Origin: a bacterium
GTDB taxonomy: Bacteria; Hydrothermota; 32-111
Direction: 5' to 3'
NCBI GenBank assembly: GCA_028698175.1
Contig: JAQVDU010000001.1
Coordinates: 1 to 58,987, forward strand
Length of the DNA: 58,987 bases
Program-made: the position numbers and the translations under genes
Shown: positions 53,248 to 56,109 of the stretch, piece after piece
How the letters are laid out: every line of letters begins with the position of its first letter
How positions within the stretch are numbered: the first letter of the stretch is position 1
Notes under the pieces: model-generated
Database searches by the model: none
Seen by the model: only the letters and a program-made list of their open reading frames with translations
What the model was told of the DNA's origin: nothing

Positions 53248-56109
53248 TTGACAGAGTCATTTGAAAAAATCAGCTCATTGGTTAAGCAGTTTGAAGAGAA
53301 CAGAGAAGATTACCATAGTAAGAAATATGATGAATCCAATACGCGCACAGACTTCATAGACAAGTTTTTTGAAGCATTGGGCTGGGATGTCCGCAACAAT
53401 CAGGGGCATGCCGAGAATTACAGGGAAGTGATAAGAGAAGACAAGATAATGATTGAGGGGAAGCAGAAAGCGCCCGACTATGCTTTCAGGATAGGCGGCA
53501 CAGTAAAGTTTTATGTAGAGGCGAAGAAACCCTCTGTTGACATAAAAAATGACATTGACGCTTCATATCAGTTGAGAAGATACGCCTATACGGCAAAACT
53601 GCCATTGTCGATACTCACGGACTTTGCCGAGTTTGCGGTGTATGACACAAGAATAAAGCCGAAGCCGACTGACAATGCCTCTGTGGCGAGAATCTTTTAT
53701 TGCAAGAGTGACGAGTATGAAAAGCAGTGGGAGTTTATAGAACAGACATTTGCAAAGGAAGCCATATTAAAGGGGAGCTTTGACAAGTATATAAAGGACC
53801 CGAAGAGGAAGAAGGGCACATCCGAGGTTGACAAGGAGTTTTTGAAGCAGATAGAGAGCTGGAGAGAAGACCTTGCCTTGAATATTGCTTTAAGGAACAA
53901 GGACTTGTCAATCTATGACTTGAACTTTGCAATACAGAAGATAATAGACAGGATAATCTTTTTGAGGATAGCAGAGGACAGGGGAATGGAGGAATACGGA
54001 GCATTGAGGAAACTCTCACAGAACAGCGAAACAAAGTTTCATATATATGCAGAGCTTGTCAAGTATTTCAAAAAGGCGGATGAGAAGTATAACTCCGGAC
54101 TCTTTGACCTTAAAGAAGACAAAGTCACCACAAAACTTACAATAGATTACAAGATATTCGCAAATATCATAGACAATCTTTATTATCCCAACAGCCCTTA
54201 CGAGTTTTCAGTGCTCCCCATAGAGATATTAGGCAATATTTACGAACAGTTTTTGGGAAAGACAATACGGCTTACAGAGGGGCACAGGGCAAAGGTGGAG
54301 GACAAACCCGAGGTGAGAAAGGCGGGCGGAGTCTATTACACACCTCAGTACATAGTGGATTATATTGTGAAAAACACACTCGGAGAGAAGCTGAAGGAGA
54401 AGACACCGAAACAGATTGAGGAACTGACTGTTCTTGACCCTGCCTGCGGCTCGGGAAGCTTCCTTATAACAGCTTATGAATATCTTCTGAACTTTTACCT
54501 TGATTATTACTCATCGGATAAACAGAGAGACAAGGCATTGAAGGATAAGAAGCTATTTGAGATAGGCGAGAGGGGATACAAACTTGGAATAGATGAAAAG
54601 AAAGAGATACTCACAAGGCACATTTACGGAGTTGATATAGACTCACAAGCGGTTGAAGTGACAAAACTATCTTTACTTCTGAAACTGATGGAGGATGAGC
54701 GTCTTGAAACAAGCCAGTATCTTTTCACAAGAAGGGCTATGAAACTCCTCCCCGACTTATCCAGCAATATAAAGTGCGGAAACTCGCTCATAGGCACAGA
54801 CTTTTACGAAGGCCAGCAGGTCGAAATGTTTGACGACGAGATGGTAAGAAAAATCAATGCCTTCGACTGGGACAAACAGTTTCCCAAAATCTTCTCCCGC
54901 GGCGGCTTTGATGTAGTGATCGGCAATCCCCCATATGTATTCGCCAGAGGAGAAAGCTTTACCAAACTTGAAAAGAATTATTATTATAATAAATTTAGTA
55001 TTTCAGAATATCAACTTAATACTTACCAATTATTTATTGAACAGTCATATAATTTAATGAAATTTAAAGCAAATTTTGGAATGATAATCCCTAATAATTG
55101 GTTAACAATAAATACATTTACAAATTTAAGAAAGTTTATTTTAAATAAGGTAGGAGATGTTATTATAGTTAATAATAAATATAAAGTATTTCAAGAAGCT
55201 AATGTAGATACTTCAATTCTTAAATTTTCAAAAAGCAACTATAAAAGCCTAGTTATTAATGAAAATGACAATATGAATTTTAACTTGATTGGTAATTTTA
55301 ACACAGATATTTTTAATAAAGACAATTTTATTATTCGAGTATCTAAAATAGAAAATAATAATAAAACGATTCTTGAAAAGATTAAACTAAATTCTAATTC
55401 TTTAGACTGCTTCGCTGTAATAAAATCTGGGTTAGTAGCTTATGAGGTAGGCAAAGGAAATCCTATACAAACAGAAGCAATGAAAAATGATAGAATTTAT
55501 CATTCGAAAACAAGAATAGATTCACATTGGTATAAATATCTAGAAGGAAAAGATGTCCAAAGATATAGATATGAGTGGAACAATAATTGGATAAAGTATG
55601 GGAAATGGTTAGCTGCTCCAAGAGATGTGAATCTTTATTTAAAGGAAAGAATCCTGGTAAGACAAATACCATCTTTGCCTCCTTATTCTATAAATTCAGT
55701 TTTGGTTAGCGAGAAAATGTTAATAAATGATAGAAATAGTATGATTATACTTGATCTGAAATTGTTTCCTTATTTTATGCTTGCTTGTTTAAATTCGAAA
55801 TTTACATCTTATTGGTTTGTTCATACATTTGATAAATTCCAACGAAAAACTTTTCCTCAATTTAAGGTAAATGAGTTAGCTTCATTTCCTATTCCAAAAT
55901 GTAGTGAAACAGAAATGAAGAAAATTGGTGAAAGAGCGAACTCCCTTCAAGAGATGTATTCTAAGCTAACAGATGATGAGAACAATAAATCATTAATGAA
56001 AAAAATAGAATTAATAAACAATGAGATTGATAAAATGATATATTGTGCATGCAAACTAACAAAAGAAGAAGTAGAGGAGATTGAAAATAGCTTTAAACAC
56101 AAGCAATAG
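53248..56109 (+). CDS. Type IIG restriction-modification enzyme (PD-(D/E)xK nuclease + gamma-class N6-adenine methyltransferase + target-recognition domain)
   Basis: APDYAF..VEAKKP nuclease motif, VLDPACGSGSFL (motif I), GNPPY (motif IV, 54922-54936). TTG start after GGAGGA. Confidence 0.8.
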   Translation: MTESFEKISSLVKQFEENREDYHSKKYDESNTRTDFIDKFFEALGWDVRNNQGHAENYREVIREDKIMIEGKQKAPDYAFRIGGTVKFYVEAKKPSVDIKNDIDASYQLRRYAYTAKLPLSILTDFAEFAVYDTRIKPKPTDNASVARIFYCKSDEYEKQWEFIEQTFAKEAILKGSFDKYIKDPKRKKGTSEVDKEFLKQIESWREDLALNIALRNKDLSIYDLNFAIQKIIDRIIFLRIAEDRGMEEYGALRKLSQNSETKFHIYAELVKYFKKADEKYNSGLFDLKEDKVTTKLTIDYKIFANIIDNLYYPNSPYEFSVLPIEILGNIYEQFLGKTIRLTEGHRAKVEDKPEVRKAGGVYYTPQYIVDYIVKNTLGEKLKEKTPKQIEELTVLDPACGSGSFLITAYEYLLNFYLDYYSSDKQRDKALKDKKLFEIGERGYKLGIDEKKEILTRHIYGVDIDSQAVEVTKLSLLLKLMEDERLETSQYLFTRRAMKLLPDLSSNIKCGNSLIGTDFYEGQQVEMFDDEMVRKINAFDWDKQFPKIFSRGGFDVVIGNPPYVFARGESFTKLEKNYYYNKFSISEYQLNTYQLFIEQSYNLMKFKANFGMIIPNNWLTINTFTNLRKFILNKVGDVIIVNNKYKVFQEANVDTSILKFSKSNYKSLVINENDNMNFNLIGNFNTDIFNKDNFIIRVSKIENNNKTILEKIKLNSNSLDCFAVIKSGLVAYEVGKGNPIQTEAMKNDRIYHSKTRIDSHWYKYLEGKDVQRYRYEWNNNWIKYGKWLAAPRDVNLYLKERILVRQIPSLPPYSINSVLVSEKMLINDRNSMIILDLKLFPYFMLACLNSKFTSYWFVHTFDKFQRKTFPQFKVNELASFPIPKCSETEMKKIGERANSLQEMYSKLTDDENNKSLMKKIELINNEIDKMIYCACKLTKEEVEEIENSFKHKQ

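Follow-up and report, generated by a model that had tools for sequence, protein, structure and literature searches.

A probable in-frame mosaic of a Type IIG restriction-methylase gene, with a composition step just after the NPPY motif, in a Hydrothermota genome

Introduction

Exchange of specificity domains has been described among the hsdS genes of Type I restriction-modification (R-M) systems, where StySB and StySP gave rise to StySQ hybrids (Loenen et al. 2013, PMC3874165). Furuta et al. reported "domain movement" of target-recognition domains (TRDs) in the S subunits of Type I and Type IIG systems of Helicobacter pylori (2011, PMC3077401). Here we describe a single-chain Type IIG gene and the trlF gene that follows it, in a stretch of 58,987 nucleotides (nt; the window) from a bacterium of the Hydrothermota (GenBank assembly GCA_028698175.1, contig JAQVDU010000001.1). 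It corresponds to contig C146 in a metagenome-assembled genome (MAG) of 150 contigs and 1.96 Mb, with a G+C content of 42.2% and an estimated completeness of 91%. TrlF takes its name from trlR-trlF-trlG, a temperature restriction locus of Photorhabdus; no trlF mutations were present among the mutants reported there (Hapeshi et al. 2020, PMC7554251). Our results suggest that the Type IIG open reading frame (ORF) is very probably a natural in-frame mosaic, in which a host-like N-terminal module (N-module) has been joined to a C-terminal module (C-module) from an AT-rich pool and a different enzyme subfamily.

Results

A composition step inside the methyltransferase domain

The G+C content of the Type IIG ORF changes in a step, without a gradient. 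The initial annotation of the window had reported an abrupt break just past the NPPY motif, and its counts (31 G+C at 54301-54360 and 12 at 55021-55080) were exactly reproduced on recounting. In 200-nt windows, GC is 0.36-0.47 over 50000-54999, 0.285 at 54900-55099 and 0.19-0.355 from there to the end of the window. A single change-point fitted by maximum likelihood to 53248-58985 falls at 54958, with a GC of 0.426 on its left and 0.284 on its right; the gain in log-likelihood was 53.8 as against a maximum of 10.1 among 200 shuffles of 30-nt blocks. Sliding windows, which the annotation had proposed for telling a step from a gradient, and the change-point analysis both gave a step.

The drop sits mainly at synonymous sites. 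The G+C contents at the first, second and third codon positions (GC1/GC2/GC3) are 0.453/0.295/0.526 for codons 1-563, 0.323/0.254/0.203 for codons 564-953 and 0.394/0.267/0.223 for the downstream gene, while the genome-wide GC3 for ORFs of at least 250 amino acids (aa) is 0.48 ± 0.065 with a first percentile of 0.239. Hence the C-terminal half and the downstream gene are both in the lowest 1% of the genome. As the annotation had stated, low GC then continues uninterrupted past the stop codon and an 8-nt spacer, through the next gene and up to the contig end.

From its sequence, the ORF at 53248-56109 is predicted to encode a single-chain Type IIG restriction-methylase of 953 aa, with a TTG start at 53248 and a TAG stop at 56107-56109. 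It matches the PADLOC model REase_MTase_IIG (PDLC03604) over residues 3-684 with a score of 606 bits. The N-module contains a PD-ExK nuclease, a helical connector and methyltransferase (MTase) motifs X and I-IV, and the C-module contains MTase motifs V-VIII, a TaqI_C-type TRD and C-terminal helices. The nuclease was recognised as PD-(D/E)xK by Pfam HSDR_N (E value 5.3e-9, residues 57-137) and MmeI_N (1.3e-4), and its residues D77, E91 and K93 are invariant in an alignment of 74 sequences. Residues D397-F405 and G559-P562 are also invariant in this alignment, and Y563 is nearly so. Motif I (DPACGSGSF) precedes motif IV (NPPY), which is followed by V-VIII, as in gamma-class N6-adenine MTases. 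The Pfam Eco57I domain (1.6e-38) covers residues 458-648, and so spans the point of change; N6_Mtase and MmeI_Mtase match as well. TaqI_C (3.2e-17) at residues 763-882 corresponds to a fused C-terminal TRD.

Residues 98-212 of M.TaqI, which we take to be the stretch from NPPY to motif VIII, align by sequence to residues 553-664 of the ORF. In a confident AlphaFold model built with 74 homologues (predicted local distance difference test score, 83.7; predicted template modelling score, 0.72), the beta4 strand occupies residues 554-559 and leads into the NPPY loop, after which come two helices (573-582 and 592-603) and another strand (604-615); the solved folds closest to this model are those of CamA, M.BseCI, BrxX/PglX, MmeI, DrdV and BpuSI. 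The Eco57I match, the M.TaqI alignment and the model together place the composition break inside the catalytic domain of the MTase, between motifs IV and V, and not where the methylase meets the TRD. The annotation had regarded the exchanged piece as the specificity domain; the TRD is indeed included, but the unit is larger and also takes in MTase motifs V-VIII.

A paralogue and a third copy fix the seam

The MAG has a second full-length gene of this type, encoding 1,001 aa, on contig C69. By blastn, window positions 53233-54936 match C69 9004-7301 with 92.3% identity over 1,704 nt, the match beginning at the ribosome-binding site (RBS) and ending on the last base of the NPPY codons (54936). 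Protein identity between the two genes is 96% before this seam and approximately 21% after it. The C69 copy has a GC3 step of its own, from 0.54 to 0.26, and its AT-rich tract is embedded with host-like DNA on either side. A third version (protein P0123) was found on L015, a MEGAHIT k141 contig from an independent assembly of another metagenome sample. Its N-terminal part is 93.6% identical to the window in nucleotides and 98% in protein, its C-terminal part differs again and its GC3 falls from 0.54 to 0.22. These three genes therefore carry three different C-modules. The C69 and L015 copies remain alike for 30-40 codons beyond NPPY before they diverge, which indicates breakpoints that cluster around NPPY without all coinciding.

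The N-module is present in at least two full copies in the genome, in addition to further 5' remnants, and its copies are 92-94% identical in nucleotides. A search with tblastn detected no second copy of the C-module in this MAG, which is 91% complete. We also considered whether a GC step might be a built-in trait of the family and rejected this: relatives in other lineages have an N-minus-C difference in GC3 of only 0-0.13, as against 0.28-0.33 here, so that the large step is specific to this lineage. The join is unusually sharp, though the type of event is well known.

The two halves have different relatives

Residues 1-563 and 571-953 were used as separate queries against a database of 5.8 billion proteins. 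The best matches to the C-terminal query are at most 52% identical and are enzymes of approximately 890-900 aa from Omnitrophota, Patescibacteria and Aminicenantes sources. The N-terminal query gave matches of 98, 96 and 81%, followed by a plateau at 60-67% with WOR-3, Aminicenantes, Treponema and Leptospira. When matches were scored over both halves, those from the C-terminal search had mean identities of 47% in the C-half and 33% in the N-half, while those from the N-terminal search had means of 26 and 64%, respectively. The closest C-module relatives carry N-halves that are 32% identical, i.e., of a different N-module subfamily, and the best N-half matches (64-98%) carry C-halves that are only 21-30% identical. 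Judged from these protein matches, the two halves have different closest relatives, which is the outcome that the annotation had looked for in a separate treatment of each half. The in-frame mosaic that it proposed is supported by the step, by the discordant relatives and by a paralogue that shares only the part up to NPPY.

It could be argued that the C-half is the original one and has evolved rapidly under diversifying selection and AT-biased mutation, without any exchange. C-halves are the variable part across the whole family, and those of some relatives are slightly more AT-rich (by the GC3 differences of 0-0.13 noted above). However, divergence in situ predicts that identity and composition decay gradually beyond NPPY and that the relatives of the C-half follow the phylogeny of the N-half; neither was seen. 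Identity to the paralogue collapses within one codon, the relatives at 50% identity to the C-half are joined to another N-subfamily, the low GC3 extends into the next gene and the GC3 drop of 0.32 is far beyond that of other family members. We consider this the least probable of the explanations examined, to the point that it can hardly be entertained.

Recurrence of the seam

The seam is not confined to this genome. We compared 583 pairs of proteins in which the N-modules share 88% identity or more. In 182 of them identity breaks from above 85% to below 45%, and nearly all of these breaks are 0-4 residues after NPPY. As protein pairs are not independent, replacements were counted after clustering, which gave a minimum of 37 replacements of the C-module, spread over 14 clusters of N-modules; pairs with the seam include isolate genomes, such as those of Leptospira and Treponema. 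Across the subfamily, mean pairwise identity is approximately 0.7 up to residue 570, 0.14-0.33 over residues 571-900 and again approximately 0.5 in the last 50 residues, a recovery which indicates that a conserved tail closes the variable cassette at its far end. In a TRD replacement by homologous recombination between two conserved flanks, the N-module would serve as the left flank and this tail as the right one. The C-terminal tail of the window gene shows no nucleotide-level similarity to other copies, and the AT-rich tract continues beyond the gene to the contig end.

Assemblies also tend to stop at this point. Contigs L020, L032 and L034, from other MAGs, end 37-53 nt after NPPY, and L038, L045 and L064-L070 are family contigs that end within the N-module. 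This pattern suggests assembly breaks induced by repeats or polymorphism, and variation of the C-module within populations would explain forks at the seam. There is about an even chance, in our estimation, that the point after NPPY is a general exchange seam in current use, at which a constant chassis (the nuclease and the S-adenosylmethionine-binding half of the methylase) takes interchangeable cassettes (the other catalytic half and the TRD). The 1.7-kb conserved N-module could then act as the upstream homology arm for cassette exchange.

The same contig ends raise the possibility of an assembly chimera, in which the assembler linked a host-like gene to an AT-rich gene from a different organism by way of a k-mer that both have at NPPY. 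Assemblers evidently meet forks there, the MAG is in 150 contigs and the AT-rich part is at a contig end. However, the C69 gene has the same seam and GC step in an AT-rich segment flanked by host-like DNA, the pattern recurs in the independent L015 assembly and the seam is found in protein pairs that include isolates. Terminal contig overlaps of 126 nt suggest that k was 127, so that a chimera would need 127 identical bases across a boundary between 42% and 20% GC. The reading frame is also unbroken, and motifs V-VIII follow in their proper order. A chimera is accordingly very improbable, and the mosaic is best regarded as a natural one.

The downstream trlF gene

The gene that follows had been labelled a PHP-ATPase; this holds in outline and can be refined to the TrlF family. 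Its product matches NCBIfam NF045780 with 538.4 bits (cut-off, 350) over profile positions 1-907 of 944 and has the signatures of TrlF, namely an N-terminal PHP-type H-x-H (WDLHVHT) and a C-terminal ABC-ATPase (AAA_21). In the window, 956 aa are seen, and the contig end removes approximately 37-50 C-terminal residues. The anti-phage protein Ppl (NF042955) was rejected as an assignment, with 92.3 bits against a cut-off of 1000, so that the product is a distant relative of Ppl and does not belong to that family; the PADLOC match to Ppl (1e-20) is partial, its best stretch being only 854-949. The nearest TrlF relatives are approximately 50% identical; their genes either belong to Type I operons of the order hsdM-trlF-hsdS-hsdR or adjoin hsdR-like genes. 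Of 80 further TrlF loci, only about 6 have an MTase nearby by tblastn, leaving about 74 without one. Like the nearest relatives of the C-module, those of trlF are on AT-rich contigs (28-37% GC).

Mechanism and direction of the exchange

The two enzyme subfamilies have only one strongly conserved stretch in common, GGFDV(V/I)IGNPPY, and the nearest C-module relatives read GGFDVIIGNPPYVFARG, as does the window. A crossover in this patch, or at its end, would join the N-module to the C-module. The last 60 nt before the seam contain, in the window copy, four private changes, all of them G/C to A/T at third positions, as against 1.1 expected (P = 0.026, post hoc), a weak hint which suggests that the crossover was within the conserved patch. 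Most likely, one AT-rich segment comprising the C-module and trlF would have replaced whatever followed NPPY, and we infer recombination as the mechanism. With nuclease, methylase and recognition on one chain, such a swap would alter the restricted and the protected sequence together. As the motifs are all in order and the model is of one domain, the hybrid enzyme is expected to be active, with a specificity that follows the C-module.

Whether the C-module and trlF came in one event, as the annotation had proposed, is less clear, and we lean only slightly towards it. In its favour are the similar GC3 values (0.203 and 0.223), the lack of a composition change between the two genes, the 8-nt spacer and the AT-rich contigs on which the nearest relatives of both are found. 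The annotation had further held that the donor matches the cassettes of the AT-rich island at the left of the window; GC values do agree (0.293 for the left island and 0.26-0.295 for the AT-rich part), but such values are generic for accessory DNA and no common donor was identified.

Several findings weigh against the exchange as set out above or set limits to it. A trlF neighbour was found at none of approximately 85 Type IIG loci and a Type IIG neighbour of the Eco57I type at none of the 80 TrlF loci; trlF is also absent around the C-module relatives P0009 and P0010. Support for co-arrival is thus confined to this window. AT-richness is common to the accessory DNA of this MAG in general, with 36 1-kb windows below 32% GC spread over 16 contigs, and the match to the left island does not therefore point to a common donor. 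The search of 5.8 billion proteins brought relatives of the C-module and of TrlF that reach only approximately 50% identity, so that origin and timing are deduced from composition. An exact 42-mer across the junction had no match in JGI metagenome contigs, which is uninformative, since the protein is known from one contig only. The contig ends at 58987, and the right junction of the AT-rich segment lies beyond it. Finally, the direction is ambiguous, because the N-module block begins just as abruptly on its left, at the RBS (53233), which would be expected had it been copied onto an incoming gene. The homology of contig C44 to an upstream 229-aa ORF stops at the stop codon of that ORF, and the N-module block starts 7 nt later. 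The 229-aa ORF itself has a weak FlgD-Ig/T9SS-tail-like match, and C44 goes on with a different host-like gene. The core was said in the annotation to be resident; its composition is host-like, but it is a multi-copy block with sharp ends at 53233 and 54936, and the recipient partner cannot be told from the sequence.

The order of events could thus be the reverse, with a whole AT-rich Type IIG gene and trlF acquired first. A resident paralogue would then have replaced the first 1.7 kb, up to NPPY where homology ends, by gene conversion, and the N-modules of the lineage would evolve in concert. This would account for a homology block that is sharp at both ends, and the genome holds the necessary N-modules, at least two of them full, as well as 5' remnants. 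Similar C-modules are also present on the same N-subfamily in other phyla (39-45% identity), so that the incoming N-half could have been convertible. However, the N-module copies are 6-8% diverged and show no sign of recent conversion: a runs test on site patterns in four sequences, from which recent conversion tracts were rejected, found 26 topology switches where 24.9 were expected (p = 0.72). In the enzymes whose C-modules are most similar to that of the window, the N-half, at 32% identity, is too diverged for homologous conversion. We therefore think this order unlikely, if less so than a chimera or divergence in situ, and prefer replacement of the C-terminal part of a host-like gene.

A phase-variable shufflon was considered and rejected, as tblastn found no silent C-module copies in the 91%-complete MAG and the only other N-module belongs to the complete gene on C69. 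The window does have 5' remnants, at 514-559, 1431-1484 and 2725-2778, but these repeats are in direct rather than inverted orientation and lack a C-module. A scan of the window with Rfam for structured elements at cassette borders gave no family above threshold.

Left island, repeats and contig ends

Several AT-rich cassettes are preceded by a promoter-like repeat of approximately 125-200 nt (TTGATT...GGGATATAAT), which runs into the RBS and the first 12 or so codons of the Type IIG gene (M-x-E-S/R-F-E-K/R-I). Its copies are listed with the other features in Table 1. The copies at 513-628 and 2744-2859 have the same fusion point, which indicates that one remnant was copied and that they are not independent deletions. 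Positions 514-559 (46 nt) share 95.7% identity with 53237-53282 at the opposite end of the contig, the two forming a direct repeat. The first Type IIG 5' remnant is directly preceded by a 113-aa ORF (187-528), a fragment that matches only the C-terminal third of DNA-damage-inducible protein D (positions 178-285 in a profile of 288; E, 7e-31).

In a related MAG, L020 252-1666 is 92.8% identical to the three-ORF cassette at 5443-6841 of the window. The L020 cassette comes immediately before the promoter repeat, which is followed by a Type IIG N-module of full length (1699-3524 for the two together), whereas no Type IIG gene follows position 6841 in the window. From this comparison, the left island has probably lost its own Type IIG copy.

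A putative toxin-antitoxin-chaperone module is present at 7127-8616 (ORFs 7174-7551, 7548-8207 and 8200-8634). It includes an MqsA-family antitoxin (TIGR03830, 9.4e-27) and a weak SecB-like match below curated cut-offs, and the 125-aa upstream ORF may be the toxin. The module is duplicated at C69 2919-1433 with 93% nucleotide identity, at the far end of the AT-rich island of C69, so that the two islands have a conserved far boundary in common. The inner edge of the left island is delimited by short repeats (6922-6960/8665-8703, 7077-7132/9419-9474 and 9481-9610) and by a two-gene module (8896-9129 and 9119-9391). The repeats and the region 8768-9399 are shared with other contigs; the repeats and the two-gene module have 87-98% identity to C61, C42, C120, C139 and others.

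Positions 1-126 of the window are 99-100% identical to the ends of C22, C23, C62, C66 and C90, and this looks like a k = 127 overlap in the assembly graph at a multi-branch repeat. The right contig end has no such overlap partner within the bin.

Table 1. Features of the window, with copies of the promoter-like repeat on other contigs
Feature	Positions	Strand	Basis and remarks
Upstream 229-aa ORF, 3' part	52596..53225	+	93.7% identical to C44 6317-6946; marks left edge of N-module block
N-module	53233..54936	+	RBS, TTG start 53248, codons 1-563; GC 0.425, GC3 0.526; host-like
GNPPY (MTase motif IV, residues 559-563)	54922..54936	+	Direct reading; homology seam at last base
Composition change-point, 2-lnL (log-likelihood) support interval	54932..54981	.	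Likelihood analysis; best estimate 54958
C-module	54937..56109	+	Codons 564-953 and stop; GC 0.26, GC3 0.203
Spacer GAGAAGGT, 8 nt, RBS-like	56110..56117	+	Direct reading; between R-M stop and trlF ATG (56118)
trlF, TrlF-family PHP-domain/ABC (Rad50-like) ATPase	56118..58987	+	NF045780; GC 0.295, GC3 0.223
Promoter-like repeat, window copies	494-628, 1404-1493, 2629-2860
Promoter-like repeat, other copies	C69 9075-8965 and 295-105; C60 1652-1514; C66 5230-5326; L015 90-213; L020 1699-1829

Discussion

The window offers what appears to be a clean and datable-looking example of the retargeting of a defence enzyme, in which one recombination event may have added a new recognition half and a neighbouring defence-type gene to an unchanged nuclease and cofactor half. 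The position of the seam indicates that the base-binding half of the methylase moves together with the TRD. A seam between motifs IV and V with at least 37 recurrences in the sampled subfamily is a candidate junction for the engineering of chimeric Type IIG enzymes. If it is indeed a general exchange seam, there would be a natural split site within the MTase fold that tolerates partners only approximately 30% identical, and this site would be directly usable for making restriction enzymes with new specificities. For annotation, calls of islands from composition should be permitted to begin inside genes.

BpuSI (3S1S), MmeI (5HR4) and DrdV (7LO5) have the same domain order and fold as the window enzyme (Foldseek E values of 1e-17 to 5e-18), but their structure-based sequence identity to it is only 12-13%. 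In the MmeI family, the changes of specificity described are mainly point changes in a shared TRD rather than replacements of a whole module. The TrlF of Photorhabdus belongs to the trlR-trlF-trlG locus, whereas the trlF of the window is placed 8 nt after a Type IIG gene.

The exchanges in hsdS and in H. pylori differ in their unit, which is a TRD in a separate S subunit with repeats on both sides; here the enzyme is a single chain, and no flanking repeats corresponding to x and y in those systems were found. Here, unlike in those systems, the unit starts within the catalytic domain after motif IV and carries motifs V-VIII, and the incoming AT-rich tract extends past the gene into trlF. In both cases, however, paralogous loci and broken remnants accompany the exchange, and the recognition module would have been replaced by recombination in an adjoining conserved stretch, to give a new specificity on a constant chassis.

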